In this document: positions 546 to 36,284 of the stretch, piece by piece
Layout: every line of letters starts with the position of its first letter
How positions within the stretch are numbered: the stretch's first letter is position 1
IMG/VR virus record: IMGVR_UViG_3300006153_000003
Source of the DNA: a virus
Lineage: Duplodnaviria; Caudoviricetes
Length of the DNA stretch: 64,000 bases
Direction: 5' to 3' (one strand)
Made by a program: the position numbers and the translations under genes
Notes under the pieces: model-generated
Databases searched by the model: none
What the model saw: the letters and a program-made list of their open reading frames with translations, nothing else
What the model was told of the DNA's origin: nothing

Positions 546-577
546 TCTTCATTTTCTCTCATTCTCCCACAAATCAC

Positions 578-763
578 TTATTTAATTTCCACAGATTCTT
601 TAATCTCTACAAGTGGACAATCTTCTTCTCTTTCTTCTTTTGCTCCCATTGGATATAAAGGCTTGAGTGTGAATATACATACAGTTGCACCATTATAATC
701 TTCATATATACAATCACAATTCCAGCAATCGCATGGCATAATCATATCTTTAATTCCTATCAA
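578..763 (-). CDS. Small Cys-rich phage protein
   Basis: RBS GAGGTG; MPxxCxxC...CPLVE pattern. Confidence 0.7.
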   Translation of the reverse strand: MIGIKDMIMPCDCWNCDCIYEDYNGATVCIFTLKPLYPMGAKEEREEDCPLVEIKESVEIK

Positions 764-818
764 TCTTTTTCACCTCATTCCATTTTCCCACAAATCACTC
801 CGACATTTTATCGCTTTC

Positions 819-1046
819 TTATATTAATGCCCTATTATTCCATTTTTTTACTACTTCTCTCGGTGTTATTTCTGAATCTGCCCAGAAATCAATATCACAT
901 CCAAAACAATGAACATAGGCCAAGATATCTTCCCTGTCTAATTCTTCATCAGTATCCACATATTTCATTTCCTGTGTTATTACATCCCAATAAACAAGTC
1001 TTGCTTTATTTTCTCTACAAAATGGACATATTTCTAATTCTTCCAT
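819..1046 (-). CDS. Lar-like (restriction alleviation) Zn-finger protein
   Basis: ELEICPFC...HCFGC...WNNRA. Confidence 0.6.
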   Translation of the reverse strand: MEELEICPFCRENKARLVYWDVITQEMKYVDTDEELDREDILAYVHCFGCDIDFWADSEITPREVVKKWNNRALI

Positions 1047-1408
1047 GATACTAACCTTTTCATCACATTATATTTAGTTCCCCTTCACTTATAATTCCAA
1101 TACTTCGCATATAATCTTCTTCTAACGCTAAAACCTTTTCAATAATATCCTTGCCAATATCGCATCTTTCTGCTATAAAATTAATTGCTTCTACGTAATC
1201 GTATACTGGTGTATTATTCATTGTCATTTCCTCCGACTCCTTCTACTTCTTCTTTAATAATTATTTCTTCTTTTTCAACTAATCCATTGCAAAATAGCAA
1301 TAGATTAGTTATACTATATATTAATGGTATGCCACCCGACATGCTTGACTTAGATAATTAAATTCCTCTAACAAAGCTCATTTTTTCGCTCTAAGGAGGT
1401 GATAAGTC

Positions 1409-1510
1409 ATGGCCAATGTACCTATGGTGCATGTTCGTGCGTACTGGCGGTTCCGTCTGAATAGATGGGAATTCGTACATGAGCATCTGCGTAATTATCC
1501 TAACCGATAA
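1409..1510 (+). CDS. 33-aa Arg/His-rich peptide MANVPMVHVRAYWRFRLNRWEFVHEHLRNYPNR
   Basis: Strong RBS AAGGAGGT; own sigmaA promoter TTGCAA(1287)-17-TATACT(1310); below the ORF-track cutoff. Confidence 0.7.
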   Translation: MANVPMVHVRAYWRFRLNRWEFVHEHLRNYPNR

Positions 1511-1554
1511 GGAGCAGAGGTGGTTATACCAGAAATATCAATTGTTATTTCTTC

Positions 1555-1743
1555 TCATTTTTTTCTATACTTAACTTCTGTATATTCCTCATATCCTTCC
1601 TCTACTTTATAAAAATGACTTAATTGTATTTCAGAATCAATCCTCTCTTGAATCTCTTCTGTTGTAGCATTATCTTCAACATAAAATTCAAAATCATAAT
1701 GCCCCAATGGTCTTACGCTAACATATCCACTTACTTTTTTCAT
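1555..1743 (-). CDS. Hypothetical phage protein
   Basis: ORF with AGGAGG RBS. Confidence 0.75.
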   Translation of the reverse strand: MKKVSGYVSVRPLGHYDFEFYVEDNATTEEIQERIDSEIQLSHFYKVEEGYEEYTEVKYRKK

Positions 1744-1792
1744 ATTCTCCTCCTACAAATTTAAAACGAATTTTTCATCTTCTTATATAAAA

Positions 1793-1942
1793 TGCTGCTA
1801 CAGGGCTTTCACCTGTAGGATATTCTTCTGTACCGCAATAGCGCATACATACACAAATATTTTTACACTCACATCTCCGCGCCGTCAGCTTAACGGAATA
1901 TCCTCTGATGGATGATCTTGTGTGCTCTTACCCACTCCAGCA
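1793..1942 (-). ncRNA. Second tRNA-like/structured RNA candidate
   Basis: TGCTG/CAGCA terminal stem, GGATATTC/GAATATCC helix, T-loop hairpin TACAGG-TGAAAGC-CCTGTA. Confidence 0.4.
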
Positions 1943-2499
1943 ATAGTTTTTCTTGTATAGACAACATTGCCCACCACTAAAGATGTGTCACCTATACTTT
2001 TTTCATTTATTTTTAATTGAGCCTTCCCACAACTCAGTCACTAGTCATCCGTAAATCCCTGATCGTGCACAATCAGCCAGTGCCCTCGAATTTATTCGTT
2101 CAGAAGGTTTCATTGTATCCACCTACAAGTTTTATTAATAACACAAAGCCTTTCACCTATTACAAATGTGGATCAAAGCTTGGCATCATTTGCAACTTAA
2201 ATAAATTCTTTTTATGCATAGAATCAATCCTTTTCTTTACTTCTTCATTTTCAATTTCTCCTTTTTTATGCTTATATTTTTGTTATCTACAATAAACATC
2301 CTCTTTTCTCAAGATAATCCACCAAGGACTTATTTACATCTTCAATGTCCTTTACTTCATATCTCTCACCATCTAATCCTTCTCCATTTATCCACATATT
2401 CTGCTTGTTGCCCGAACTCTTATAAAATTTGACACCTAATTCTACACTCTTAATATCCACCATCTTCTCTCCTCTTTCTCAAATGAATTGTTAGATTTA

Positions 2500-3110
2500 T
2501 CAGTTATCATTCACTTCAATAATTTCACCATCAACCATCGTATACCAAATATCTTCTTTGATTTTCACACCATCTACTTGAACCATTTTTGCATCCTTTA
2601 AATTCCACTCGTTTTGTTTCCAATAACAATCTTCATTACCTTCCCAATCGGCAAGCACTAAAAATGACCCCTTGACACCTTTTGCTTTACCATGGTATCC
2701 CCACGCAACTGCAATAGAGTAAGGATCTTTGGCTTCAGAAGCACCTTTATATCCTGTAGCAGATGAAGCACCACAATTTCCTGTAGAATCCATTTCATGT
2801 TTAGTTCTTTCTTTCGTATATTCAATTGCAGCTTTTACTAACCCTGCAATTGATACTCTTGCATTGATTTTTATTTTAGTAGAAGCGACCTTCGTATCAT
2901 CACTATTACGTGACAATTCTCCATTTTGTTCTACTTCATGAAAAACAGAATTATTAGGGCTATAATATGAAAAACAATCCAATGGATACTCACATGCATG
3001 GAATCCCGTTTCACATGCAATGGCTTCTTTTTTCCTTCATATTCTTTTCCTTCTTCATACTGAAATTCTCGACATGTCATATCCTTATTAAATCCTTTAT
3101 AAGTTCTCAT
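2500..3110 (-). pseudogene. Conserved phage protein (MRTYKGFNKDMTCREFQYEEGK...CETGFHACEYPLDC) split by a -1 frameshift
   Basis: ATG at 3110 with RBS; frame joins ORF 2500..2982 after A_AAA_AAG at 3027-3033. Confidence 0.7.
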
Positions 3111-3129: not shown

Positions 3130-4074
3130 TTATTCCTCTCCTACATTTACCAACTTTTCAATATATTCTCTGCTACCCTCCTTAAAAAAAGGAATCTCTT
3201 TATCAACAACCCAATGTCTTTTTTTCACACAGTCTTCACCGACACCAATACGATTTAGAATAGCTTCATTCTCTTCTGAATATCTGCAACCAGAATATTT
3301 ATCAATCCAATATTCTTTCTTAACTACACAGCTTCCACGCTTCTGATATGTAGGAAAATCATTCCAATTAATTTTCTTCTGAATCATAAGCATATCCTGA
3401 ATGTCATTACAAGATTTATTCTGTAATTCCTTGTGACTGAAATTTGCTTGTCCTACCATTTGAATACTGTTTCTAAAACAATCTAATTGCCTCCAATAGA
3501 AATAATTCGTTACTTCTTCTTTTGGAATATTGAAAACTCTCGCGTCAAACATAGCACCAGATTTTAATGCTTTTGAATATGCATCTTCTAATTCCAAAAA
3601 AGACTCTTCCACCTTATTATTGGTCCCACCCAAATCCCAATCTGGTAAATTTCCTTCTCCCCATTCATCATAATTCACTGAAAAAAATTTATTAAAAGCC
3701 AACGTAGCCATACTTGCAGCAATACTACACATTTTCTGTATTTCGTAATCAAACCATGCCGAAGTTCTAATACTCTGATAATCCACCAATATTAAAGAGA
3801 TTTCATCAGACTGGCAATATCCAAGTACACATCCTTGAATATTCTCACAAAGATACTTCGTAGTCTCCTGCATTGTTTTAATCAAGACATCATCAAACGG
3901 TCTTTTAAATCCTCTAGTAAATGTATGAAAAGTTTTGCCGTCAATCCGGATAATTACTGGTATTCTTCTCATTAATTTTGTTTTTGGAATATCTTCATAA
4001 AAAATTTTCATCCGATTTCCCAGATCATCTCTTCTTTTATTCATGATAATCATTCCTCCTAATAACCCAAACAA
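3130..4074 (-). CDS. thg1: tRNA(His) guanylyltransferase Thg1-like protein
   Basis: IRIDGKTFH, QSDEISL, FDARVF, YFYWRQxDxxRNS motifs; true start probably ~4044-4053. Confidence 0.9.
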   Translation of the reverse strand: MFGLLGGMIIMNKRRDDLGNRMKIFYEDIPKTKLMRRIPVIIRIDGKTFHTFTRGFKRPFDDVLIKTMQETTKYLCENIQGCVLGYCQSDEISLILVDYQSIRTSAWFDYEIQKMCSIAASMATLAFNKFFSVNYDEWGEGNLPDWDLGGTNNKVEESFLELEDAYSKALKSGAMFDARVFNIPKEEVTNYFYWRQLDCFRNSIQMVGQANFSHKELQNKSCNDIQDMLMIQKKINWNDFPTYQKRGSCVVKKEYWIDKYSGCRYSEENEAILNRIGVGEDCVKKRHWVVDKEIPFFKEGSREYIEKLVNVGEE

Positions 4075-8053: not shown

Positions 8054-8410
8054 TTATTCTTCAAAATCTGGGATCGCATTATATACTCTACGAATCTCTT
8101 GTTTTTCACTAATATTCGTCACTACCCCAATCTTTTTCTTAATACGCTTGTTACTGATTACACGCATCTGCTCACCAAGTAATATCGAATCCATTTTTAA
8201 CCCTGTATCAGCACTTTTCTTTATCAGAGTATGCGTAGGCTGATTTGGATTCTTAAATACTTTAGTTGAAAATGGAATTACCATAGTTGTTGGACTATGT
8301 AAATTACCAATATCATTTTGAATGACAAGCACAGGACGTATTCCACCCTGCTCTGATCCTACTGTCCCGGACAGATCAGCTTGCACTATATCATATTTCT
8401 TTATTTCCAT
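8054..8410 (-). CDS. mazF: PemK/MazF-family endoribonuclease toxin
   Basis: GSEQGGIRPVLVIQNDIGN motif. Confidence 0.9.
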   Translation of the reverse strand: MEIKKYDIVQADLSGTVGSEQGGIRPVLVIQNDIGNLHSPTTMVIPFSTKVFKNPNQPTHTLIKKSADTGLKMDSILLGEQMRVISNKRIKKKIGVVTNISEKQEIRRVYNAIPDFEE

Positions 8411-8477
8411 AATCGCATCCTCCTTCCTTCTTTTATGTACTACACTATCTTTATGTTTCCATTATACAATATATACT

Positions 8478-8575
8478 TTGTATAATCAATATATATATTG
8501 TTTATTATTGTACAAATATCACATATACATATTGTACTTTTTTTGTATATATTGTATAATCAATATATATATTGT
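8478..8575. repeat. 24-bp exact direct repeat in a divergent promoter region (probable operator)
   Basis: TTGTATAATCAATATATATATTGT at 8478-8501 and 8552-8575. Confidence 0.7.
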
Positions 8576-8592
8576 ACGGAGGTATATTTTAT

Positions 8593-8805
8593 ATGATATG
8601 TAACAATCCAAAAGAACTTTTAGCTGAAATCAAAAAATATATGGATATAGAAGATATTCAAATGAAAGATCTTGCATTACGTTTAAATAAAACGCAACAA
8701 TCTGTTAGTCAATATTTTAATAATGGTAATCCCAACTGTCGCACACTTTTTGAGATATGCAATGTCTTGGGACTTAAGATAAGTATAGACAAAAACTCAG
8801 ATTGA
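8593..8805 (+). CDS. XRE/Cro HTH regulator
   Basis: MKDLALRLNKTQQSVSQYF HTH; GGAGG RBS. Confidence 0.85.
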   Translation: MICNNPKELLAEIKKYMDIEDIQMKDLALRLNKTQQSVSQYFNNGNPNCRTLFEICNVLGLKISIDKNSD

Positions 8806-9574: not shown

Positions 9575-10780
9575 TTAATCTCCACCTGCCTTAAAATTAT
9601 ATATCGGCTTTATAATTCTGTCAATCTCAACAGTATCATCAATATTACCCACAATATCATCCATACCTTTATAAGCCATTGGACATTCATCTAAAGTATC
9701 ACGATTTACAGATGTTGTATAGATACCTTCCATTTGCTTTTTAAACTCTGAAACTGTAAATGAGGATTTAGCAGCAGATCGACTCATTAGTCTTCCAGCA
9801 CCATGAGGTGCCGATTGATTCCACTCATCATTACCTTTTCCAATACAAATCAAAGAACCATCTCTCATATTGATAGGAATAAGCAACTTTTCTCCTTTCT
9901 TTGCAGATACAGCCCCTTTTCTTAAAATCATTGCCTCTGTATCTATATAGTTATGAATTGTTGTAAACTGATCCACAATATGCAGTTTCATTCCTTTTAC
10001 TATTTCATCCATCATTGCCTGACGGTTTAGTTCTGCATATTTTTGAATAATCTTCATATCATGAATGTACTGTATGAACAATCCATCTGATACATATGCC
10101 AATTGCTTGGGGATGTTGGTTCTCTTTGTGTTTTTCAATGCTGCAATACTTTTCTGAATTTCTTTCTGTTTTCCCTGTGCTTTTAAATCCATAATTAAAG
10201 CATCAATATCTTTTTGCGCAGATCCATTTAATTCCTTATAACCTTCTTCTTGATAATAATTTGCTACTTCCAACCCCAAATGACGGCTACCTGAATGTAC
10301 CACAATATAAATATTACCTTCATCATCTTTGTTGGCTTCTATAAAATGATTACCTCCACCTAACGTTCCCAGGCTTTTCTCTGCCCTTCTCTTATCTATC
10401 TTTTTATAGCAATATAGCTCTTCCAAATTAATGTCTTTGAAGTATCTATGTGTCTTTTCTCTTATATTGAATCCAGATGGAATCTTTTCATAGATTAGTT
10501 TATCAAGTTTTTCCAATTCTATATGCTTTTCTTTAACTTCTATAACCTCCATGCCACATCCGATATCAACTCCTACCAAATTCGGAACAATCTTATTTGT
10601 AATGGTCATAGTTGTTCCAATCGTGCATCCGGCACCAGCATGGATATCTGGCATTAGTCTAATTTTGCTATCAGATACAAATTCTTGATTAAGCAAAAGT
10701 AAAACCTGAGATATAGAAGCTTCATCTACAATATCTGTAAAAATTTTTGCTTCATTATATTTGCCTTTTAACTCTATCAT
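9575..10780 (-). CDS. rtcB: RtcB RNA 2',3'-cyclic-phosphate/5'-OH ligase
   Basis: MPDIHAG, VGVDIGCG, LGTLGGGNHFIE, HSGSR, HNY, RKGA, SAPHGAGR motifs. Confidence 0.95.
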   Translation of the reverse strand: MIELKGKYNEAKIFTDIVDEASISQVLLLLNQEFVSDSKIRLMPDIHAGAGCTIGTTMTITNKIVPNLVGVDIGCGMEVIEVKEKHIELEKLDKLIYEKIPSGFNIREKTHRYFKDINLEELYCYKKIDKRRAEKSLGTLGGGNHFIEANKDDEGNIYIVVHSGSRHLGLEVANYYQEEGYKELNGSAQKDIDALIMDLKAQGKQKEIQKSIAALKNTKRTNIPKQLAYVSDGLFIQYIHDMKIIQKYAELNRQAMMDEIVKGMKLHIVDQFTTIHNYIDTEAMILRKGAVSAKKGEKLLIPINMRDGSLICIGKGNDEWNQSAPHGAGRLMSRSAAKSSFTVSEFKKQMEGIYTTSVNRDTLDECPMAYKGMDDIVGNIDDTVEIDRIIKPIYNFKAGGD

Positions 10781-10804
10781 AAGTCCTCCATTTAAATAGT
10801 TATT

Positions 10805-11461
10805 TCATCGCCATACTAAAATCGGTTTTATCATATACCCATTTTTCTTTATACTTATTTCACCTATAATATTAAACTGAAACGGTACATATTCATATAT
10901 TTTTTCACTGTAATGATGTATTTCTTTTATCATTTTTGTTGACTGCATTTTTAAAATAATTGAATCAATTTTAGGATTTTTAACTTCATAATTAAAAGAA
11001 TTTAATAAGGTTTTATTCATTTCAAATGTATAAATACATTCTTCATTTTTCATTCTATTTATTATATAGTTAAAATTTTCAATATGATCAAAATCTTCAT
11101 ACACATCATCTCCAGAATCAATTCTATATAAAATAAAGAAGTCGCTAAAACCAATAAGAGTACCGTCACTTATATTTTTATCTAATTCTTGAATTGGATA
11201 TTTCTTAATTATAGTAGAAATTTTGTCATAAGAATTAGGTTTTACAATCAATTCTTCCACAATGGAATTATTGATTTTTCCATTTCCATTTATTTCAGAG
11301 GAAACAAATTTATTTATTATCCCTTCTGTTCCAAATTTCAAATTTGCATCTAAAGTGTTGTCTTCTTTCGTAATTACTTTTTTCTCTACATTCTTATTAT
11401 TTTGTATATACAACATTTCAATTTCTTCATCATCCATATAAAATAATGATATATTATTCAT
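10805..11461 (-). CDS. Hypothetical low-GC cassette gene
   Basis: 218-aa ORF flanked by junction sites. Confidence 0.75.
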   Translation of the reverse strand: MNNISLFYMDDEEIEMLYIQNNKNVEKKVITKEDNTLDANLKFGTEGIINKFVSSEINGNGKINNSIVEELIVKPNSYDKISTIIKKYPIQELDKNISDGTLIGFSDFFILYRIDSGDDVYEDFDHIENFNYIINRMKNEECIYTFEMNKTLLNSFNYEVKNPKIDSIILKMQSTKMIKEIHHYSEKIYEYVPFQFNIIGEISIKKNGYMIKPILVWR

Positions 11462-11501
11462 TTTATATATTCTCCTATATATGAACTTTCACATTCATTC
11501 A

Positions 11502-12047: not shown

Positions 12048-12074
12048 ATGTTACCACTCCTTTAAACTAGAATT

Positions 12075-12332
12075 TTATGGTCTATTAAACCTTGCCCATT
12101 TAACACCATCCTGCACTTCATAAAGTGACATTCCACCATTTGCACTTACAATCATCCATACATGGCCATCTCTATTTTCTTTAAAATACCCAACAAAAGG
12201 TGGACGATTAGCATTTATATCATTCTTAAATTCGATCAATATTTCTTCCTCAAGATTTGGTAACTCAACACCATCCTGCCATCTATAATCTTTATTATTA
12301 TCATATCCTATAATTTCTTTCCATTCTAACAT
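12075..12332 (-). CDS. Hypothetical phage protein
   Basis: ORF with AAGGAG RBS. Confidence 0.7.
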   Translation of the reverse strand: MLEWKEIIGYDNNKDYRWQDGVELPNLEEEILIEFKNDINANRPPFVGYFKENRDGHVWMIVSANGGMSLYEVQDGVKWARFNRP

Positions 12333-12370
12333 TTCATTTTCTCCTTACCAAGTTGAATCCAGCCTTTCAA

Positions 12371-13063
12371 CTATATAATTTTATGTTCTGTAATCAATTT
12401 ATAAAAAACTTTTCCTTCTGCAGTAATATGTCCTCGCTCAGTTTTTACTTTTCCTGATATAGCATTTTTTGAAGTCTGTCTTACATAACCATCGTGGAAA
12501 ACTACTAATCCTAAACTTTGTAGCCTTAACATGCTTGCAAATGGAGGATGACTATCCTCAGTATACCTATACATCTTATAAATTTCTTTTAATTTTTCTA
12601 TATCATACAATGTAATTTGACTCAATATATCCGTATAAAGCATTAATTCTTTCCATTGAATAATTTTACTAATATATGCAATATATAAATTTCCAAAATA
12701 CATACTCTTTTCCAAATCTGTCCAGCTATTTATTTTAACCAAAATATAATTTACTTCCTTATAAAGTTGTTTTTTATTTGTTTTAAGGTAATCTAAATGA
12801 ATTTTAATTTCTCCTGGTGTAGCTACCCCTGAATTAACAGTATTTATAAATTGCTCAATCATTTTGATTTGATAAGCATTTCTAATACCAACTATTCCTT
12901 TTGCAAGAGCAACTACTATTTTAATCTTTGGTATAGGAAGTATTATTCCAAGCTTTACAAAAGTGTTTAGTTTATATTCTGCTAATTCCAAAAATATATC
13001 TGTTGCATCTTCTTTAAATTCCCTTAATTCATTAGTAGACATTTTCATCCCCCTTAAAAACAA
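12371..13063 (-). CDS. Hypothetical low-GC cassette gene with possible C-terminal winged helix
   Basis: 230-aa ORF; RLQSLGLV...ITAEGKVF. Confidence 0.7.
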   Translation of the reverse strand: MFLRGMKMSTNELREFKEDATDIFLELAEYKLNTFVKLGIILPIPKIKIVVALAKGIVGIRNAYQIKMIEQFINTVNSGVATPGEIKIHLDYLKTNKKQLYKEVNYILVKINSWTDLEKSMYFGNLYIAYISKIIQWKELMLYTDILSQITLYDIEKLKEIYKMYRYTEDSHPPFASMLRLQSLGLVVFHDGYVRQTSKNAISGKVKTERGHITAEGKVFYKLITEHKII

Positions 13064-13071
13064 TATTTATA

Positions 13072-13902: not shown

Positions 13903-13945
13903 AGTAAACTCCTATTCCCATGAAAGCAACATTCTATTGGTATAC

Positions 13946-14848: not shown

Positions 14849-14891
14849 AAACTCTCCTTTCTGCTGGCAATGAAAACCGGATTTTCTGCCA

Positions 14892-15582: not shown

Positions 15583-15641
15583 AACTTTACCCCCAATGAA
15601 AATCGAATTTAGTTGTTCTTATCATAATACTTACTCTCATC

Positions 15642-15854: not shown

Positions 15855-15888
15855 GATAAAACCTTCCTATAAGTCAAGTTTTCAACTG

Positions 15889-16611
15889 TTAATCCAAGTT
15901 TACATCTACAGGATTTTCCAACTTTAACAATTCGTCTTTATGTTCTACAAGAGCTGCACTTGCAATGGAATTTATTTTATTCTGGCAGAAAGATTCAATT
16001 TCTCCTTTTGCTTCCATTATCGTCTTATCCATTTGCTCGTTAAACTGATCTGCAATAAAGTCCATATTGCACCCAATTTCCATACTCAATTTAGATAACT
16101 TACTAAGAACTTCCTGTTTCTCTGCTTTTGTAAGTGTTTTCTTTTGATTAAATAGTTCTGCTACATCCTTAATAATTTGTTGTGATTCTATTGTTGCTTT
16201 TCGCCTTTTTTCTTTAAATTCATCAGCAAATTGTTCTCTCTTACTAACAAAATCACATTCCGGTATATGACCATCTTTTTCTGTCCAACGAATAGTCACT
16301 GGAACACCTGAAGCCATATTCATAGATGTAATAGCCTCAGCAAATTGTGAATAGCTCATTTCAACTTCAATAATTTTCTTATTCCCATAAATAGAATCAT
16401 AGTGCAATCCTCTTGTAATATCTGCATGATATAAGGTCATTGCAATTGTATCTCTATGTTCAATACTACTTCCAAACAAGGGCGTACTTTTACCATTTCT
16501 TCTATTAAATACCAATGTTCCATAACTCGGATGACTTGTCTTTGTTCCAAATTGTGTATTTTCTACTTTATAATCACTCATAACATTTCCTCTTTGTCCC
16601 ACTAAAATCAA
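15889..16611 (-). CDS. Conserved phage protein (likely start MSDYK at ~16581)
   Basis: HPSYG...LFGSSI...EVEMSYSQFAEAITS motif. Confidence 0.8.
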   Translation of the reverse strand: MILVGQRGNVMSDYKVENTQFGTKTSHPSYGTLVFNRRNGKSTPLFGSSIEHRDTIAMTLYHADITRGLHYDSIYGNKKIIEVEMSYSQFAEAITSMNMASGVPVTIRWTEKDGHIPECDFVSKREQFADEFKEKRRKATIESQQIIKDVAELFNQKKTLTKAEKQEVLSKLSKLSMEIGCNMDFIADQFNEQMDKTIMEAKGEIESFCQNKINSIASAALVEHKDELLKLENPVDVNLD

Positions 16612-16615
16612 TCAT

Positions 16616-16858
16616 TTATTTCTTCATCTTTTTAAATTTGGCAACACATTTCTTACAAAAATATTCTGGATGTGTTTCTATATCTTTTTCTCCATAATCT
16701 GTAGTCTCCCAATACCCTGGAATCATCCATGAATGTGGAGAACACAATGAAACTCCATTATCATCAAAACAATGGATTTTTGCATTCCCGTGTATAGAAT
16801 ATCCTCTCCCATTCAGTAGATCATCTCTTACTGGTAGCTGCCATTCCATAATCTCCAC
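16616..16858 (-). CDS. Small Zn-binding hypothetical protein
   Basis: HCF...LC...CKKC. Confidence 0.65.
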   Translation of the reverse strand: MEIMEWQLPVRDDLLNGRGYSIHGNAKIHCFDDNGVSLCSPHSWMIPGYWETTDYGEKDIETHPEYFCKKCVAKFKKMKK

Positions 16859-17066: not shown

Positions 17067-17794
17067 TTTTTCTCACTTCTTTCTTCTTTCCATTTTCGAC
17101 TCTTAAGAATCAGATCTCTATATTCCTCATAATCCTTGAAAGCTACATACTTTCCATTATATACATCCAAACACTGTTCTTCTCTTGCCATTTCATATTC
17201 ATTAGCAGAAACAACAATATAAATATCATTGTCTTTCTCGTGTTCAATAATTGTTTTGAACAATCCCTCTTTCAATTCGACAATATTATCAACACTTAGT
17301 CCCGAATCCACAGTGTCAAATAAAATCCAACGCTCATTGGACATTTCAATATCCTTATCACTACTTTCATCCTTTTTAAAAACGCCTTCAAAAGGGTTAT
17401 AACGTCTTTTATATATACCAGTTTTAATAAATCTTCCCAACTTCCCAGCCAGGTCCATTAAATTCAAAACAATATTCTCACCTTCGGATGAACTCATACT
17501 TTCTGCTACAAATCTAAAGTCTTCCAAAAAAGCTTTCTCAGAACGAGAATTAGACCCTCCATCAGAAAGATTATCGAATTTTGCAACCGGAATTTTCTCT
17601 TTCCTTAGCACATCCTCAATATTATGCAACAATGTTGTCTTTCCTATCCCATTACATCCTACAAGCACTGTAATACCAGGCTTAAGTTCTATAGTTCTCT
17701 TCTTATATAAATCAAACCCACAATCATACGGATCTTTCCAAAGTTTAATCTTTCTACCCATATTTTTCCACTCCTTCCTTATTATATCATACAC
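17063..17794 (-). CDS. ABC/AAA-type P-loop ATPase
   Basis: Walker A GCNGIGKT, SSEGE signature-like, Walker B ILFD. Confidence 0.8.
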   Translation of the reverse strand: MYDIIRKEWKNMGRKIKLWKDPYDCGFDLYKKRTIELKPGITVLVGCNGIGKTTLLHNIEDVLRKEKIPVAKFDNLSDGGSNSRSEKAFLEDFRFVAESMSSSEGENIVLNLMDLAGKLGRFIKTGIYKRRYNPFEGVFKKDESSDKDIEMSNERWILFDTVDSGLSVDNIVELKEGLFKTIIEHEKDNDIYIVVSANEYEMAREEQCLDVYNGKYVAFKDYEEYRDLILKSRKWKEERSEKK

Positions 17795-19655: not shown

Positions 19656-19826
19656 AATAATCTTCTCCTTTTCTTCTTAAACTTATTTTAATTTGTTCCT
19701 ATACCACTCTTACTCACGACTTTAGACGTGCATCGGCGTGGTTAAAACAAATTTCTGTATAATAAAAAGCATCTGGATTTTATTCTCCAAATGCTCATTA
19801 TTTTTACTCTGTATTCATTTCTGTAT

Positions 19827-20861: not shown

Positions 20862-20893
20862 ATAAATCTATTATTTTATCTCATAAACTCCAA

Positions 20894-21837: not shown

Positions 21838-22170
21838 TTATCCAACCATTTTTCCAATTGCTTCTTCAACAGCAGCATTTAAACTTTTCCCATGTTCAAA
21901 CGCATACACAGCAATATTCCGATGAAGTTCTGGACTGATCCTGACATTAAACGTTCCCTTGTATGGCTGCTCAGGTTCCACGTCTCGTTCTTCACAATCC
22001 GTCAAGTATTCATCAATCACATTCTGGAAATCTTGTTCTAACTCCTGCACAGAATCCCCTTCATACGATAACAAAGATCTTATCCCAACGACTTTCCCAA
22101 ATAAACACCTGTCTTCTTTGGAATATTCCACTGTACCATTGTAATTCTTATATGATAACAAATTACTCAT
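21838..22170 (-). CDS. hicB: HicB antitoxin
   Basis: YKNYNGTVEYS...YKGTFNVRISPELH. Confidence 0.9.
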   Translation of the reverse strand: MSNLLSYKNYNGTVEYSKEDRCLFGKVVGIRSLLSYEGDSVQELEQDFQNVIDEYLTDCEERDVEPEQPYKGTFNVRISPELHRNIAVYAFEHGKSLNAAVEEAIGKMVG

Positions 22171-22418
22171 AACAATCCATCCTTCCTCAATTTCTCTATT
22201 ATCTGTTCCAATGCATATCTCTTTAGGATTCCGCTTGGGTGTGGCTTATGGAAATGTATCACTTCATTACTTCCATATTTTACAAATTTTACGCCCGATC
22301 CAGTTCCGCCCTGTTTTAATTCATACCCAAAATATGATAGCAAGGACTCCATTTCATCAAAAGTAAAGTCTTTCGGTTTCTTCAGTAATCTATCTATCAA
22401 TTTATCTTTCTTACTCAT
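22167..22418 (-). CDS. hicA: HicA toxin
   Basis: PKDFTFDE...GSGVKF...HKPHP. Confidence 0.9.
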   Translation of the reverse strand: MSKKDKLIDRLLKKPKDFTFDEMESLLSYFGYELKQGGTGSGVKFVKYGSNEVIHFHKPHPSGILKRYALEQIIEKLRKDGLL

Positions 22419-22543: not shown

Positions 22544-22563
22544 TTCGACACCACAGGAAACAA

Positions 22564-22980
22564 TCATTTCATTCCTATCATTTTGCCAAAATACATTGCT
22601 GCTTTCCCATTTCCACCTTCATATTTTCTTCCAATACATCCGACTAAAGCGGAATCTAATGAATAATAACTTGTATTAGTATCTCTATAATTGAAGTATC
22701 CGTGGTAATGAACTCCTTCGTCATTTATGGCTTCGACGATCTGATATTCTCCAATACAATGAATCCTAACAACTTCTCCCCAATGATACTCTCGCTCTAT
22801 TAGGATAAGTTTTTCATCGTGTGTCGCTTGTCTAACATCATTTTCAGTTATTGCTTTAAGTCTTGACGTAGAATATGTTCCATAATTACATGGCAAAAAT
22901 CTCATAACCTCTTTATTATCATAATCTGTAACAACAGTTCCAACTTCATCTTCATATATAACAATATCACCACTTTTCAC
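22564..22980 (-). CDS. Hypothetical phage protein
   Basis: ORF with RBS. Confidence 0.75.
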   Translation of the reverse strand: MKSGDIVIYEDEVGTVVTDYDNKEVMRFLPCNYGTYSTSRLKAITENDVRQATHDEKLILIEREYHWGEVVRIHCIGEYQIVEAINDEGVHYHGYFNYRDTNTSYYSLDSALVGCIGRKYEGGNGKAAMYFGKMIGMK

Positions 22981-23016
22981 TGTATTTCTCTCCTTTTTCT
23001 TCCATGAAATAATCCT

Positions 23017-24054
23017 TTACTCAGGCATAAAAAATTCAGAAAAACTATCATTCAAAATCCTCGTTCTGATATTAACTGCCTCTTCCGTAACCGCAATACG
23101 TCCTTTTGCAAATTCATTATACCTACTATTTACAGAAATATCCCTTGTCTCAGTTCCAAAGAAATCGACTATCCATTCTTTCACAACTTCTAAATCCATA
23201 TTCTCACTAACAACTTTTTGCATAATAGGCATTATAGAAATCATATGATTCTTTCCTAATATCTTTTTTGCAATTTTGGGTTTCTCATTTTGTAAATCTT
23301 TGCAGACACTAAGAAATTCATCGAAAATATTATTTATCTCTTCCATTTGATCTTCTGTAATTACCGATTCTTTCATAACAGGTCTGATGTACTTCGTTTC
23401 GAAGGATTTCTTATTACTATACAATAATACCCATGTCTTGATCACAACATCCTCGTTTGCATAGGAAACAAGTGATTTTTCTGACAAAGCAAAATTAAAC
23501 AAATCATGACTGGCCATCTTGCGTATCTTATCACCAGATGCAGCATTCGCCCTTGTTAATTCAATCGCAGTTAATGATTTTCCATTATTCAATCTCCGGA
23601 ACATCTCTTCTGCATCTTCCTGATCCATATTCTCATAATAATATACTGTAAGACTATATGTCTTAATCGTATCCTGAACATCCTCTGGCAACTGAGAATA
23701 TACTAACCCATTAAAATCCTGCACATTCCCCTCTTCATCTTCAAAAGTAGGAATATTTACCAAGGGGAATTCATCTTTTAAAAATTTTACAATAGTAGTC
23801 ACTCGCTGCTTACCATCCAAAAAATCATATATTTTGCTCTTGACATCTTCAAATATACAATTACAGTACATCGGTGGAACTGGAAGCCCTCTCATCATGC
23901 TATCTATCAACATACTCATACGATTATCCTTCGAAGTATTCTTCCAGACAAAAGATCTCTGTACAGCATTATCAAAAGATAAATTTCCCTTTTCATACAT
24001 TACTTTTAAATCTCTTGCCATTCTAGGGAAAGATTTTCTCTCATATGTTTTCAT
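23017..24054 (-). CDS. DUF262 domain protein
   Basis: QRSFVW, LIDSMMRGLPVP, LDGKQRVTT, FRRLNNG. Confidence 0.85.
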   Translation of the reverse strand: MKTYERKSFPRMARDLKVMYEKGNLSFDNAVQRSFVWKNTSKDNRMSMLIDSMMRGLPVPPMYCNCIFEDVKSKIYDFLDGKQRVTTIVKFLKDEFPLVNIPTFEDEEGNVQDFNGLVYSQLPEDVQDTIKTYSLTVYYYENMDQEDAEEMFRRLNNGKSLTAIELTRANAASGDKIRKMASHDLFNFALSEKSLVSYANEDVVIKTWVLLYSNKKSFETKYIRPVMKESVITEDQMEEINNIFDEFLSVCKDLQNEKPKIAKKILGKNHMISIMPIMQKVVSENMDLEVVKEWIVDFFGTETRDISVNSRYNEFAKGRIAVTEEAVNIRTRILNDSFSEFFMPE

Positions 24055-24271
24055 CTATAAACCTCCAGTTCATCTTATCGGTTATGCTCTCTTTTCCATC
24101 TCTCTGTATCTTTCCTTAATTCTTCCATAATTATCCTGGTATTGTCCTTCCCAATCTCATCACATTCCTTGAGGACTCTTCTCTCATCTGCGGTTGATAC
24201 AAATAACCATATTCCAAATCCTATTAGTAAAAATAGTATTACCATCTCAATTCCTCCATTTTCTTACTATT

Positions 24272-24490: not shown

Positions 24491-24613
24491 ATCTAATTAT
24501 ATCCTTCCACTAAAAAATCACCAGATCATTTCTCTGATGATTTTTTATCAAAATTAACACACACCCAAACATTCTCATATGTAAATACAATTGAATAGAA
24601 TAGAAGGTACATT

Positions 24614-24814
24614 TTATCGCGTCAAGTCAATATTATATAATACCCAATCTACAATGTATTCCATATCACCATCTTCATTTGTAAAGAATCCATCTTTAAA
24701 ATTATTTTCACAATATTCTTCTACATACTCTTTGAATCCATCTTAAGAATACATATCGTTATTTTTATTCCACTCATTTTGTAATCTTTTAAGTATATTT
24801 TCTTTATTCAACAT
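24614..24814 (-). pseudogene. Small gene with an in-frame TAA at codon 24
   Basis: GGAGG RBS; MLNKENILKRLQNEWNKNNDMYS*DGFKEYVEEY... Confidence 0.55.
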
Positions 24815-24901
24815 ATTTCCCTCCACACTTAGAATCTACAAAATAAAAGCATCTGGATTTATTTTCCAAATGCTTTTAAACAATTCACTATTTTCTGTTA
24901 C

Positions 24902-25228
24902 CTACATAAAACTGATTATCAGTTCCTTTGCTTCATTCCATAAATCTTCTGGACATTCTTCTTTAAACTGAGCGTTTCTAGCACCAACATCCAACATTTT
25001 CGCCTGATCACACAATATCACGCCTGTTGTTTGCGTCCGCTCATCCAATTCTATATGAAACGGATGCTTTTTATTAGTGTTAGTTATCGGACAAACAAAT
25101 GCCAATGAGCTATGATGATTCAAAATGTCATTACTCAGGACAAGTGCTGGTCTTCTTCCGCTCTGTTCATGACCCTTTTGCGGGTTAAAATCCATAACGA
25201 TTATGTCACCTTGTTTATAAGTTACCAC
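24902..25228 (-). CDS. mazF: PemK/MazF toxin
   Basis: FNPQKGHEQSGRRPALVLSN. Confidence 0.9.
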   Translation of the reverse strand: MVTYKQGDIIVMDFNPQKGHEQSGRRPALVLSNDILNHHSSLAFVCPITNTNKKHPFHIELDERTQTTGVILCDQAKMLDVGARNAQFKEECPEDLWNEAKELIISFM

Positions 25229-25602
25229 TGTTCATTCCCTACTGGATCACCTACGTCAACCTCTTGTGTACTTTCGATATAAATTTCGTCTATCGGTTTA
25301 TTGTAGAATGATTCCAACCTTTCTTGTAAATTAAGATATTTAGGCTTATTGATTTTTTCAATAGTCATTTTTCCATCATATATATTTATCACGACTGTAT
25401 CGTCTTCCTTTAAATTCATTTGCGCCAATACTTCCTTTGACAATCTGATTCCCTGACTATTTCCCCACCTCCGTATTGTAGTTTTTGTTGTAAAATTAAA
25501 AATTGTATCTTTTGTTATCTCCTTTGTTTTCATTTCCATATTTATCCCTATCTCTCTGTTCGTTTGTGTACTATCTTTTGTGATATTTGTATCTTCGTAC
25601 AT
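25222..25602 (-). CDS. mazE: AbrB/MazE antitoxin
   Basis: IRRWGNSQGIRL...GDPVGNEQW. Confidence 0.85.
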   Translation of the reverse strand: MYEDTNITKDSTQTNREIGINMEMKTKEITKDTIFNFTTKTTIRRWGNSQGIRLSKEVLAQMNLKEDDTVVINIYDGKMTIEKINKPKYLNLQERLESFYNKPIDEIYIESTQEVDVGDPVGNEQW

Positions 25603-25719
25603 TTAATCTCTTATCTTATGATTTTATATATGATGAAATATATCTCATATCTTAAGTATATACATAGTATATCCGTTTGTCAACATAAAAATTCCCAAAC
25701 ATTCAATAAAATGCGAATT

Positions 25720-26133
25720 TTATCTAGGCAACATATAATTATAATCATTGATAATGCTTAATGTCGCAAGTTCCTCCTCCATCCAACCGTTACCTTCTTC
25801 ATAAAGACTATCCAAAAAGTCATCTTTTTCTTTTGTTGTTTTAAAACGACCTGCCACCCTTGGTTTTCCTTCCATATCTTCCCAAGGAATATAAGTTACC
25901 GTCCATCCTTTTTTTTCTTCACTCTCAAGCTCAAAGTGAGAAGTTTTAAATTGTCCTAATTTATATTTTTCGCTTGGAATATGATACGTATAAAATGTGG
26001 CATATTCATCACCGTCTGAATCTTTCCAGATACTATCATTATCCATATAATACCGGCTACCCACTGTTATTTGTCCAGGATATGTTGTTCTTTCATTTAT
26101 ACATTTTACTAATTTCATATTGCTTTCCTCCAA
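25720..26133 (-). CDS. Hypothetical phage protein
   Basis: ORF track. Confidence 0.7.
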   Translation of the reverse strand: MEESNMKLVKCINERTTYPGQITVGSRYYMDNDSIWKDSDGDEYATFYTYHIPSEKYKLGQFKTSHFELESEEKKGWTVTYIPWEDMEGKPRVAGRFKTTKEKDDFLDSLYEEGNGWMEEELATLSIINDYNYMLPR

Positions 26134-28112: not shown

Positions 28113-28140
28113 TTCATAAATTAAATACGAGTTTTATCTG

Positions 28141-28554
28141 CTAATTCCATAATTCGTTTATATTACTAATAAGTTTTTCTTCATCAATCCCATCGTTGTA
28201 ATTTATAAACTCATTAATAATACACTCTTTTGCAGCTTTAATATAATATAATACACCATTTGCTGAAGTTCGTGTTATATATTTTTCCATAGTTTTAGGA
28301 ATAATAGGCTCTGCTTCGTCGAGTATTTCAAAAGAAATCCTTCTAAAAACATTATTCTTATTCGCCATTTCTAACGGATAATCCTTTTTAAAATAATCAA
28401 ACTCAGGATGTGAGTCAATAAATATCCTTACACCATTATTCATTGGTATTATAAGACATAAAGATGTATTATTTATTACATATGAAATTTCTTTACCCAA
28501 AATTTTCGCTTTGCTTTCTGTGTATTTTTTTATTGCTTCTCTAATTGTCATCAC
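28141..28554 (-). CDS. Hypothetical cassette gene
   Basis: ORF between junction sites 28122 and 28581. Confidence 0.7.
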   Translation of the reverse strand: MMTIREAIKKYTESKAKILGKEISYVINNTSLCLIIPMNNGVRIFIDSHPEFDYFKKDYPLEMANKNNVFRRISFEILDEAEPIIPKTMEKYITRTSANGVLYYIKAAKECIINEFINYNDGIDEEKLISNINELWN

Positions 28555-28602
28555 ATATCCTCTCTATCTATTTATAGTCTTGAAATTCCGACTTTATTGC
28601 CT

Positions 28603-30191: not shown

Positions 30192-30237
30192 ACTTATAAT
30201 TCCTACTTATAAATTCACCTTTCTAATAATAAAACCA

Positions 30238-30429
30238 TTAATTCAACCCGTAAACATAGTGCATATTGTGTTCACATTTACTACATTTTTCGCAATCGTC
30301 CCATGTTCCCAGTTTTCCATATGGATCACATTTTTCATTACAATAATCCATATGTTTTCTGCAATCAGAACAATATAAAATCCCATCCGCTGTCGGTTTA
30401 CCACAAATTTCACATTTTCTATCAACCAT
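30238..30429 (-). CDS. Small Cys-rich protein
   Basis: CEIC...CSDC; GGAGG RBS. Confidence 0.65.
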   Translation of the reverse strand: MVDRKCEICGKPTADGILYCSDCRKHMDYCNEKCDPYGKLGTWDDCEKCSKCEHNMHYVYGLN

Positions 30430-31094: not shown

Positions 31095-31139
31095 ATTTCA
31101 AACCATCCTTTCTATAATATACTTCTGTGTTTGTTTTTA

Positions 31140-31202
31140 TTTATAACCACTATAAAAGGCACTAACGATATTCTTCGTTAATGCCTTCTAACTGATTATA
31201 AA
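31140..31202 (-). repeat. Repeated extended hairpin motif, copy 2
   Basis: TTTATAATC-AGTTAG-hairpin-TTATAGT-GGTTATAAA. Confidence 0.7.
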
Positions 31203-31421: not shown

Positions 31422-31448
31422 TGTAATTCCTCCGTTTAAACAGTAGTT

Positions 31449-31913
31449 TTATTCCAATATATTTTCCTCTTTAAAACTATAATAATCCGATCCTACAATA
31501 ATATTATCATATAATTGAACTCCTATTATTTCTCCAGCTTCCTTTATTCCTCTGTATACTTGCATATCTTCTCTTGATGGATTAGTATCCTGAGATGGAT
31601 GATTATGAATTAATATAATCCCAGAAGCCCCACATAATAATGCTCTTATAAAAATTTCCCTTGGTGTAACTAATGAACAATCGACCGTTCCATGTGATAT
31701 CTCAAAAACACCAAGTAATCTACACTTTACATTGAAAGCCAACATATATAAATGTTCTTCAGCCTGCCTATTCAATCTAAAAATATTATTCATCATATCA
31801 ACTATTTTTATTGGGCTATCCATCCTATCTGCAGAATAATTACAACTACTTTCTTTCACGATCATATTTTGCAAATTCTGATTCAATTCAACATTGTATT
31901 TTGTAATCCTCAT
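31449..31913 (-). CDS. RadC-like JAB/MPN domain protein
   Basis: EEHLY, HGTVD, PREIF, HNHPS...PSxxD motifs. Confidence 0.9.
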   Translation of the reverse strand: MRITKYNVELNQNLQNMIVKESSCNYSADRMDSPIKIVDMMNNIFRLNRQAEEHLYMLAFNVKCRLLGVFEISHGTVDCSLVTPREIFIRALLCGASGIILIHNHPSQDTNPSREDMQVYRGIKEAGEIIGVQLYDNIIVGSDYYSFKEENILE

Positions 31914-32970: not shown

Positions 32971-33138
32971 AGTTTATGAAGGGATTAACTCCACAACGAA
33001 TAACTACTGTATAAGTATTCTCCTGAGAATTGTATAAACTAGCCTTATTTTCTCTGCACACATCATCCGTGGAATTCAAATTGCAATAATTTAATAAATC
33101 TCTTCTATCACTCATACTTTTCACCCCTTTTATTTTGC

Positions 33139-33204
33139 TTTTATGAGCACTATAAAACGGCTATAGATATATATTCTCCATAGCCGTTCTAACTACTCAT
33201 AAAA
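33139..33204 (-). repeat. Repeated extended hairpin motif, copy 3
   Basis: TTTTATGAGT-AGTTAG-hairpin-TTATAGT-GCTCATAAAA. Confidence 0.7.
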
Positions 33205-33210
33205 TTGTTT

Positions 33211-34662: not shown

Positions 34663-34665
34663 TTT

Positions 34666-35349
34666 CTAAGTATATAGCCGCTCAGTTCCATGTTGTACAT
34701 TTTCACCTTTAAAACAATCACCGCAATATTCCCATATTTCAGAATTAACCCGTTTAAATGTGTCGAATGTATATTTTTCTTTCCCGTTCTCATCAATTCT
34801 GCTGCTAAATGGTTCTCCAACCTGTGAGCAATCGTTTCTCATACAGACAGGAGGCAAACAATCCATTAAATCATCTACAATTTCATCTTCTACAAGATCG
34901 CCAATCTCCAATGCACTTGTTCCATAATACCAATCTTTGTTATATACCATTTTTCCGTCATGTATTCGACATTCTTTCAATGCTTTTCCTTCAAAGATTG
35001 TTTCTCGAATATATACGTCATGTGTCATCCACGGTAAAGCCTGATAGCATTTCTTATATTTTTCAGCTATTTCCTTTTCTGGGAATACTATTGGATTACC
35101 AGCATGTAACGTATAATTTCCGTGATTATATACAACTTCATATCCTGTTTTTGTGATCCAGTCTGGAATATTGACTTCAATTTCATATCCTTCATCAACA
35201 CTCCATCCTACTGCCTCCGTATCATATTCACTTACAGGCTCACCAACTGCTTTATAACGATAACTTGCTACTTCTTTCTTTCCTTTCTCCGTAAGTACAA
35301 AATGTTTTCCTTTATCAGCCTGATACCATCCATCTGTTCTTAGCTTCAT
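34666..35349 (-). CDS. Hypothetical phage protein
   Basis: ORF with RBS. Confidence 0.75.
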   Translation of the reverse strand: MKLRTDGWYQADKGKHFVLTEKGKKEVASYRYKAVGEPVSEYDTEAVGWSVDEGYEIEVNIPDWITKTGYEVVYNHGNYTLHAGNPIVFPEKEIAEKYKKCYQALPWMTHDVYIRETIFEGKALKECRIHDGKMVYNKDWYYGTSALEIGDLVEDEIVDDLMDCLPPVCMRNDCSQVGEPFSSRIDENGKEKYTFDTFKRVNSEIWEYCGDCFKGENVQHGTERLYT

Positions 35350-35390
35350 TATCTCAATCCTTTCTCTTCATTATTATATATATTTCTGTT

Positions 35391-35440
35391 TTCCGTTTCG
35401 TTCATGCTTATCAGCGTCGGACTTCTACCGACGGACGGAA
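35391..35440 (-). ncRNA. Type III hammerhead-like ribozyme (minimal helix II, G8A variant)
   Basis: TTCC-GTC^-CGTCGG(TAGAAGT)CCGACG-CTGATAA-G(CATGAA)C-GAAAC-GGAA. Confidence 0.6.
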
Positions 35441-35528
35441 CATACAAGACGATGATATTTTTCTGCGTCGGTCTGACATCAAGACCTTTCATTTTTTATA
35501 GTTGTTGGTGGCAATTTCAACTTTTATA

Positions 35529-35619
35529 ACAACTTTTTAGTTGTTTTTGTTGAGATTATAATAACACAACTTTTTAGTTGTGTCAACTATATATTTGTTA
35601 TTTTCTATTTTTTAGTTGT
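35529..35619 (-). promoter_or_regulatory. sigmaA promoter with a repeated palindromic operator
   Basis: TTGACA(35581-35586)-17-TATTAT; ACAACTTTTTAGTTGT at 35529 and 35566, partial copy at 35609. Confidence 0.75.
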
Positions 35620-35663
35620 TAATTAAACAATTTAAAAAGCACTATGCAATCAATACATAATGC

Positions 35664-35876
35664 TTATTCTGCCTTGCTTCCATTAGGAAAGATAAAAAAT
35701 GAATGGTACTCACATCCCATTATAGAAGCCATCTTCTCAAGTTCATCCTGCGTAAATTTTCCAACTTTTAACCGTTTTGATATATTTTGTTGAGACATTC
35801 CCATTCTTGCGCCTAACTCAGTGACAGAAATTCCTGCCATTGCACATGCTGATTCAACTTTTTGCTTTATAGTAAT
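35664..35876 (-). CDS. 70-aa XRE/Cro HTH regulator with a probable ATT start
   Basis: AGGAGG-8nt-ATT; (M)TIKQKVESACAMAGISVTELGARMGMSQQNISKRLK... Confidence 0.8.
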   Translation of the reverse strand: MTIKQKVESACAMAGISVTELGARMGMSQQNISKRLKVGKFTQDELEKMASIMGCEYHSFFIFPNGSKAE

Positions 35877-35889
35877 CTCTCTCGCCTCC

Positions 35890-36102
35890 TCAGACTAATT
35901 TAAAATCTCTAATAATGCAATAAATACAATCATTATCATTTGTTTTTCGACATACTCTATAGCAATCACGAATATTTTTTTCTTGGTCTGTGAAATTATT
36001 CCATTCGTTTTCCGCAATTCGCACAGCTTCTTCTTCCGAATTAAATTCTTTATATTTTTTAACTTCTCCTTTTTGCTCCTCAACAATATAATATTTATCC
36101 AT
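35890..36102 (-). CDS. Hypothetical protein
   Basis: ORF with AAGGAG RBS. Confidence 0.7.
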   Translation of the reverse strand: MDKYYIVEEQKGEVKKYKEFNSEEEAVRIAENEWNNFTDQEKNIRDCYRVCRKTNDNDCIYCIIRDFKLV

Positions 36103-36284
36103 AACTCAATACTCCTTTATTTTTCTCAATTCTATTATATCAGAATTCACTACATTTTCAAGCTATTTCTTATTTAATGCTTTCAAACTACTATAAAAGG
36201 CAGATACTTTATACTTCTGTATCTGCCTTTTGTTCATTGTGTTTTCTCCCTTCAAATATCCCTTTCATCGGGTAACTAATACTA

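Follow-up and report, generated by a model that had tools for sequence, protein, structure and literature searches.

The window analysed here, a stretch of 64 kb (64,000 nucleotides) out of the 130.9-kb virus record IMGVR_UViG_3300006153_000003 (Duplodnaviria; Caudoviricetes), belongs to a mouse-gut SPbeta-like temperate phage with close relatives among the prophages of murine-gut Lachnospiraceae. Its left arm consists of about 80 tightly packed minus-strand genes, which include those for Thg1, RtcB, GmrSD-like proteins, MazEF- and HicAB-type pairs, a sliding clamp and a small tyrosine recombinase, and a YonO-type single-subunit RNA polymerase (PF05183) is encoded at 52819-55560. Here we describe a short palindromic site, TRAA-N7/8-TTYA, that recurs at the gene junctions of this arm, together with its occurrence in related phages, including Bacillus phage SPbeta, and the gene exchanges that are joined at it.

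The initial annotation had listed 17 exact sites and ten variants, and all 17 exact sites were found at the coordinates it gave. Fourteen window sites, named by their start positions, stand in the canonical order described below (28122, 25707, 24601, 23005, 22556, 20863, 16603, 15870, 15597, 14871, 13921, 12354, 12063 and 10793), each with an address defined by its centre. The first is an exact N7 site (28122..28136; coding strand TAAAACTCGTATTTA) of address type TCTCGTAT/ACTCGTAT, whose centre occurs in five other arms. The N8 site at 25707..25722 (TAAAATTCGCATTTTA; address ATTCGCAT) uses the stop codon of gene 25720-26133 as its left arm, and its centre was found in 6-7 other arms. A degenerate site with one arm mismatch, absent from the earlier list, lies in canonical order at 24601..24616 (TAAAATGTACCTTCTA; address ATGTACCA/T), with a centre common to 4-5 arms. 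One arm of the N7 site at 23005..23019 (TAAAGGATTATTTCA; address TGGATTAT) is the stop codon of gene 23017-24054, and the variant at 22556..22571 (TGAAATGATTGTTTCC; address ATGATTGT) has a decayed right arm and keeps the canonical order. The centre of the exact N8 site at 20863..20878 (TAAAATAATAGATTTA; address ATAATAGA) recurs in 9-12 other arms, where it is preceded by 11 and followed by 10 distinct contexts. Further along the arm, the N8 site at 16603..16618 (TAAATGATTGATTTTA; address TGATTGAT) again has a stop codon as one arm and a centre present in seven other arms. The variant listed as 15870 occupies 15869..15884 (TGAAAACTTGACTTAT; address (T/A)ACTTGAT), has a decayed right arm and a centre found in five arms, and is likewise in canonical order, and the N7 site at 15597..15611 (TAAATTCGATTTTCA) carries address ATTCGATT, shared by four arms, with one base lost. 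Two more variants follow, at 14871..14886 (GAAAATCCGGTTTTCA; address ATCCGGTT; left arm changed from T to G; centre in 9-10 other arms) and at 13921..13936 (TAGAATGTTGCTTTCA; address ATGTTGCT; centre in 4-5 arms). The series ends with an N8 site at 12354..12369 (TGAAAGGCTGGATTCA; address AGGCTGGA/T; centre in five arms) and two N7 sites, each with a stop codon as one arm, at 12063..12077 (TAAAATTCTAGTTTA; address ATTCTAGT less one base) and, directly upstream of RtcB, at 10793..10807 (TGAAATAACTATTTA; address ATAACTAT less one base).

The other exact matches are a mixed group. An N8 site lies at 28581..28596 (TAAAGTCGGAATTTCA). Probable family members are the N8 match at 1762..1777 (TGAAAAATTCGTTTTA), which has a near-identical site in record G002 at 34634, and the N7 match at 31437..31451 (TAAAACTACTGTTTA), whose N8 counterpart TGAAACTACTGATTCA stands in G005 at 3933. 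Membership is uncertain for the N8 junction match at 2484..2499, which has no clear counterpart in a region covered by few relatives, and for the N7 junction match at 13055..13069. No counterpart was found in the other arms compared for the N8 junction matches at 11482..11497 and 30230..30245, nor for the N7 match at 24058..24072, whose spacer is the ribosome-binding site GGAGG and which is likely a chance match; chance alone would account for about five of the 17 exact sites. Conversely, four of the ten listed variants (13921, 14871, 15870 and 22556) proved to be orthologues of canonical sites in relatives.

The canonical form of the site is W-TRAA-W-N6-W-TTYA-W (16-18 bp), in which positions -1, 4, 11 and 16 are W, information is confined to about 5 bp per arm, and conservation does not extend past +/-1. 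The N7 sites of the window are canonical N8 sites minus one base. On the coding strand a site starts 0-13 nt past a stop codon, or overlaps it, and ends just ahead of the next ribosome-binding site. The R and Y bases combine independently (TGAA/TTTA 17, TAAA/TTCA 16, TGAA/TTCA 14, TAAA/TTTA 13); since the four combinations are equally common and A.C 'pairs' are not avoided, no RNA or single-strand hairpin is maintained. The two-fold symmetry of the pattern points to recognition of double-stranded DNA, and the palindromic arms may be what a DNA-binding protein with two-fold symmetry, or a pair of recombinase protomers, recognises.

We regard it as very improbable that the motif is an RNA-level element of the polycistronic mRNA, such as a small hairpin, an RNase processing site or a translational coupling signal. 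Such an element would suit sites that, on the coding strand, always follow a stop codon and precede the next ribosome-binding site, and a left arm that often, as in SPbeta, is the stop codon of the upstream gene. The lack of R/Y covariation argues against it, as do the instability of a 4-5 bp A-U stem, the occurrence of SPbeta sites at operon ends, behind the last gene, and in gaps that separate divergent genes, and the translation of other operons in the same host without the motif; it would also leave the conserved, collinear centres described below unexplained.

Enrichment of the motif is a property of junctions. An earlier estimate that matches are rare overall was wrong, as the whole window holds 26 matches each for N7 and N8, where shuffles predict 26.1 and 26.05. 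The junctions of the left arm contain 18 sites; when intergenic bases are shuffled around fixed genes and stop codons, 4.8 +/- 2.1 are expected, and the expectation rises to 8.2 +/- 2.1 when the last 16 nt before each start are fixed as well. A scan of spacings from 0 to 25 over the window junctions gave peaks at 7 and 8 only, and correction for a family of 7,680 palindromic patterns left a P of about 0.036 for this window alone. In an exact 4-mer dyad scan of the junctions only pairs of ribosome-binding site and start were prominent. The right arm had been described as free of the motif, and the remainder of the same 131-kb genome is indeed without enrichment.

Independent sequences gave a far sharper signal. 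The junctions of four related viral-contig arms hold 50 N8 sites against 6.0 expected, with all other spacings at chance, and 24 further arms from metagenomes and Lachnospiraceae genomes hold 178 against 20.8. In Bacillus phage SPbeta there are 27 junction sites against 3.7 expected, and TAAAA-N6-TTTTA occurs in 34 copies, compared with 0-3 at other spacings. The motif is likewise enriched in most of a further 38 YonO-type phage records, and over 43 such records most show an excess of the 18-mer over a reversed control (e.g. 71/2, 74/5 and 63/8). The loci reached through RtcB homologues were mostly unrelated phages with 41-56% G+C, in which the motif was not enriched. A spacing of N12 is also enriched (44 vs 23 in Lachnospiraceae arms; 14 vs 4.1 and 10 vs 1.8 in SPbeta), an excess that may reflect overlapping sites or a second class.

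Whole-window counts at chance level, a marginal family-wise P in the window alone and seven window-site arms that contain stop codons would all fit a chance pattern, or an artefact of composition due to stop codons and AT-rich intergenic DNA, singled out post hoc. Replication in independent sequences settles the matter, and with the sharp single-spacing peak and the perfect collinearity of the centres it refutes this reading, to which we give practically no credence. The junction motif is thus confirmed as real and family-wide, the Bacillus phage SPbeta included. A literature search found no account of it, the original SPbeta genome paper lying outside the searched set.

The centres of the sites were compared as the 8 bases between the 4-bp arms, in arms of at least 15 kb, with sharing defined as at most one mismatch. 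Within a genome centres are shared at chance level (2/1237 pairs), as opposed to 508 of 18663 pairs between genomes, about 25 times chance. Some 23 centre types recur in three or more arms, and their order is the same throughout, with 1043 concordant pairs and none discordant. This conservation is not carried by the surroundings: in 353 of 417 distinct same-type pairs (85%) neither 150-nt flank is alike by local alignment, and a single centre type can stand in as many as 11 different upstream and 10 different downstream contexts. The centres behave as position-specific addresses, unique within each genome and collinear between genomes.

Homology breakpoints fall at the same places. In a pile-up of arms with blocks at least 88% identical, ends of upstream-derived homology cluster at site +13 to +18 and downstream homology starts at -1 to 0. 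Of the 50 breakpoint pairs, 44 agree in the centre with no more than one mismatch, the other flank being unrelated, and in these pairs the arm differences lie on the unrelated side, that is in the left-arm R/W upstream and in the right-arm Y downstream. Blocks with an identity of at least 98.5% have 16 ends, 9 of which coincide with a site edge, compared with 0.8% for random positions. SPbeta and phi3T have in common a block of 3,213 bp with 99.97% identity and a site at each end, and the site TAAAAGATGCATTTTA of Bacillus phages has two upstream and three downstream contexts, which occur in five of the six pairings that these allow.

Strain-level contigs from independent mouse-gut studies contain gene replacements joined at the window sites themselves; the sequencing runs examined are contigs only, in which excised circles, RNA ends and rare joints are invisible. 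Identity of 99.96% with locus L152 stops exactly at the 3' edge of site 28581, downstream of which the two are only 90% identical, and runs X3 and X4 have a joint at this edge (28580). Site 28122 and gene 28141-28554 are missing from L152 and L154. Homology with L152 resumes inside site 25707 after a gene of 137 aa has been replaced by one of 95 aa, with joints inside the site at 25717/25723, the former in X3 and X4. At site 23005 homology with L214, L215 and L217 stops at 23004, and X3 and X4 have a joint at 23013; a replacement joint at 22555, next to variant 22556, is present in X5, X6 and L213. At least four different upstream contexts join at site 20863 in strain-level relatives, with boundaries at 20875-20893 and joints at 20875-20884. 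Finally, 99.93% identity with L162 stops just past site 12063, at 12057, a position that is also a loose end in X6. Beyond it L162 has other genes, a block of three, and its homology with the window resumes inside site 10793, with a joint at 10808. The initial annotation had proposed that the sites mark points of gene gain, loss and swapping, and had suggested aligning relatives; in such alignments, of strain-level and of more distant relatives, homology breakpoints are indeed found at or within the motif.

Site-spanning alignments were nearly all chance matches within core genes. The laboratory phi3T-SPbeta hybrid PP526179 was rejected as evidence on the sites because what it has from SPbeta is late-region DNA, in which kilobases of the two parents agree at 98-99.9%, and the 'palindrome' features annotated in AF020713 are sequences different from the junction motif. 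A preprint describes two independent clear-plaque mutants that lost the whole 23-bp yopQ-yopR intergenic region (10.1101/2021.11.22.469490); this junction (SPbeta AF020713, 81257-81279) is without the motif.

We consider it probable, with some reserve, that the sites are conserved, position-specific and identity-dependent crossover joints, or 'addressed linkers', through which blocks of genes are swapped while gene order is kept. The arms would be common to all sites and the centre would give partner specificity. When two related phages meet, e.g. a superinfecting phage and a resident prophage, exchange would take place only between sites with the same centre, identical centres presumably being required. 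One crossover would swap everything distal to the site, and two crossovers at different addresses would swap the intervening gene block. If exchange is confined to same-centre sites, order would never be permuted, a genome's own sites could not delete its own genes, and only the 16-mer would stay conserved between unrelated slots. As to enzymology, strands might be exchanged site-specifically across the centre, or annealed on about 9-16 bp of identity. The initial annotation had held that non-identical spacers would need a heterology-tolerant enzyme; this difficulty falls away, because the partners appear to be same-centre sites in other genomes and not different sites within one.

Several observations weigh against the linker interpretation. 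The 253 site-bearing junctions carry 129 breakpoints and the 781 others carry 204, an enrichment of only about two-fold, and these counts are not fully independent events. In distant relatives a junction breakpoint test, coarse and of low resolution, gave no enrichment (25/120 vs 168/643). The sites are bypassed in many exchanges, whose ends fall at ribosome-binding sites, within genes or in long intergenic regions. About half of the sites in the window phage have a decayed arm or a lost base, and any arm-dependent function is therefore under weak constraint there. No recombinase was found to co-occur with the motif across the family, and the conserved arms are only about 5 bp long, while known binding elements of tyrosine recombinases measure 9-13 bp. 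By sequence alone, moreover, identity-dependent crossover is indistinguishable from ordinary short-homology recombination.

A conserved protein-binding motif might do no more than supply an identical stretch of 9-16 bp on which general recombination, or annealing recombination of the phage, could act, by analogy with the promoter-early stem-loop (PeSL) cassettes of T4-type phages (Arbiol et al. 2010, PMC2839356; Comeau et al. 2014, PMC4122927). The two systems have in common short repeats between small accessory genes in hyperplastic regions, with indels and replacements in relatives that are bounded by the motif. PeSLs differ in being longer composites of promoter and terminator, all alike, that recombine by homology between any two copies. 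The junction sites, in contrast, measure 16-18 bp and have a centre of their own each, so that there is no room for -35 and -10 hexamers or a G+C-rich stem, and their exchange is apparently address-specific and order-preserving.

It is also conceivable, if rather unlikely in our judgement, that the motif is primarily regulatory or architectural, as a repressor roadblock or the site of an HU-like protein, and that exchange is a by-product of the short shared sequence. The 5-N6-5 palindrome, with half-site centres 11 bp apart, has the geometry of an operator for a helix-turn-helix dimer, conservation from Bacillus to Lachnospiraceae phages suggests a core function, and the two-fold enrichment of breakpoints per junction is modest enough to agree with it. 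Both the window phage and SPbeta encode an HU-family protein: that of the window (60502-60798, plus strand; PF00216, E 2e-35) is the counterpart of SPbeta YonN, which is annotated as a histone-like DNA-binding protein, and may, speculatively, be a binder of the sites. Repressor sites that are numerous and placed in short intergenic gaps have precedents (PMC9283540, PMC6550527), as do regulatory repeats through which shuffling takes place (PMC2839356, PMC4122927). Recognition of the arms by a regulator would, however, leave unexplained why centres are conserved at orthologous positions amid flanks of which 85% are unrelated, and why they are unique within a genome. The right arm and the late genes of the window phage are without the motif, and chromatin affinity purification sequencing (ChAP-seq) of the SPbeta protein MrpR gave about 10 peaks, all at SPBRE and not at the 30 or more junction sites (PMC10516654).

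Two known classes of repeated operator bear on this point. Like the stoperators of Cluster A mycobacteriophages, the junction sites are dozens of copies of a short motif in the short intergenic gaps of a temperate phage, but stoperators are asymmetric 13-mers in one orientation, near-identical and bound by the immunity repressor, whereas the junction motif is palindromic with site-specific centres (PMC9283540, PMC6550527). SPBRE is a 15-bp MrpR operator in about 10 SPbeta promoter regions, and MrpR has a tyrosine-recombinase fold (PMC10516654). It resembles the junction motif as a repeated intergenic element of the same phage family; the junction motif differs from it in standing at 30 or more gene ends, outside the MrpR ChAP-seq peaks (PMC10516654).

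The linker interpretation finds closer parallels among the core sites of tyrosine recombinases. In variants of loxP and FRT and in lambda att, inverted arms of 11-13 bp flank a centre of 6-8 bp, and exchange needs identical centres. Heterospecific lox or FRT centres that share a molecule show no cross-reaction, and recombinase-mediated cassette exchange builds on this. The inverted arms of the junction sites, with their 5-6-5 or 4-8-4 geometry, would be compatible with such core sites, but at about 5 bp they are far below known binding elements. Here too partners have the centre in common (the 44 of 50 breakpoint pairs) and arms travel with their own flanks. A natural recombinase-mediated cassette exchange in SPbeta-like phages, in which a putative family-wide protein binds TRAAW arms and exchanges strands across matching centres of 6-8 bp, with 20-40 mutually incompatible addresses per genome, is a possibility that we put forward only tentatively. 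The palindromes and boxes of CRP/FNR, cre, Rex, ARG-box, ComK-box and dif would not seem to fit the junction motif in arms or spacing.

The initial annotation had instead proposed a candidate integron- or pdif-like system, in which a heterology-tolerant enzyme, perhaps the recombinase at 17782-18642, would excise, insert and shuffle single-gene cassettes between different sites of the array. There is a superficial likeness to integron cassettes in the co-oriented genes of one strand (about 80) with sites between stop codon and next ribosome-binding site, and to pdif and attC arrays in the small gene units that are separated by short sites and differ between related replicons, here even among close relatives. 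Membership of either family did not hold, since the sites are 16-18 bp with 5-bp arms and show neither attC architecture, 11-bp Xer arms nor an IntI. An attC site is an imperfect palindrome of 57-141 bp with R''-L''/L'-R' boxes (RYYYAAC...GTTRRRY) that folds as single-stranded DNA, and IntI lies beside attI and Pc. The window sites have no conservation beyond +/-1 and none of the R/Y covariation needed for such folding. In pdif systems of Acinetobacter plasmids, XerC/XerD sites of 28 bp (11-6-11) alternate in C/D and D/C orientation around modules. Both arms of the junction site follow the same TRAAW consensus, unlike pdif, and leave no XerC- versus XerD-type arm and no orientation to alternate. 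Within-array shuffling is further contradicted by an address order that is never permuted (1043:0), and the contig joints, within the limits of contigs, show no sign of circles or inversions. We thus hold the proposal to be improbable.

The proposed agent fares no better. The 17782-18642 protein (minus strand; 286 aa; PF00589, E 3.5e-8) is a small tyrosine recombinase without an N-terminal core-binding domain. Its catalytic R, K, HxxR, H and Y are all present, and from its sequence it looks catalytically intact; MrpR, by comparison, has lost the catalytic residues (PMC10516654). Three motif-rich records (G006, G008 and G010) contain distant homologues, and the motif-poor G007 and G009 yielded none, a distribution that speaks for the proposal. 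On the other side, its score against the integron integrase model NF011946 is 18.6 bits, for a cut-off of 435, and no homologue was found in SPbeta, phi3T or Goe11 at E <= 0.1, in spite of the motif enrichment in SPbeta and of the same breakpoints at sites in all three (arm regions compared). Beyond about codon 20, several strain-level relatives have a NUMOD/HNH endonuclease gene that interrupts the recombinase gene or takes its place, which further weakens the case for the recombinase as agent. At this break (window 18582-18658; loci L214-L220) homology stops 60 nt into the recombinase gene and a gene of 239 aa (NUMOD) or 189 aa (HNH) follows, which suggests an intron or homing-endonuclease insertion or a gene replacement. 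A sequence search of the PDB with the recombinase returned nothing significant, and a single-sequence AlphaFold model was unusable (predicted local distance difference test, pLDDT, 39.8). A second, XerC/XerD-like tyrosine recombinase of 383 aa is encoded at 61427-62578, directly followed by a GIY-YIG/NUMOD endonuclease at 62587-63618; it could serve as integrase or in dimer resolution.

Other features of the arm were recorded alongside. The Thg1-like and RtcB RNA-repair enzymes are encoded at 3130-4074 and 9575-10780, and the arm also has two GmrSD_N (DUF262) proteins. Pairs of toxin-antitoxin type lie at 24902-25602 (MazEF-like), 21838-22418 (HicAB) and 8054-8805 (PemK/helix-turn-helix). A gene for an IS110-family transposase (37223-38440), on the opposite strand and in a stretch of higher G+C, stands at the inner end of the motif-bearing arm. 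Where its gaps are longer, the arm also contains intergenic elements of about 50-100 nt, at 19749-19801, 24845-24878, 31138-31193 and 33106-33206, the first two similar to each other. All four are 79-91% conserved in several related phages despite differing neighbour genes, and they may be promoter or operator elements, the counterpart of SPBRE in SPbeta. A megablast of the arm against the phage collection gave no match, and neither did the sliding clamp as a query against the viral contigs.

The origin of mosaic joints at gene boundaries of phages has been debated since Botstein's modular theory, with rare illegitimate recombination followed by selection on one side and conserved linkers on the other. 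The junction sites appear to belong to the latter, as linker sequences that mediate modular phage exchange. A large phage family would thus have an explicit, collinear set of linkers with centres that act as addresses, and since SPbeta and phi3T are tractable in Bacillus subtilis, the mechanism of this mosaicism is testable. The slots of the window hold toxin-antitoxin, GmrSD-like and RNA-repair genes. In Bacillus phage SPbetaL6 (L223) the junction site TAAAACAGAGATTTTA at 11431-11446 stands 37 nt upstream of the annotated anti-Gabija gene Gad2, so that at least one named anti-defence gene lies in a motif-delimited slot. How fast the arms race between phages and host defences proceeds may therefore depend on these joints. 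If the cassette-exchange reading is true, co-resident phages would swap anti-defence and other accessory genes slot by slot, with the array neither scrambled nor deleted, and if a dedicated enzyme exists, it would provide a compact multi-address recombination system of practical use.

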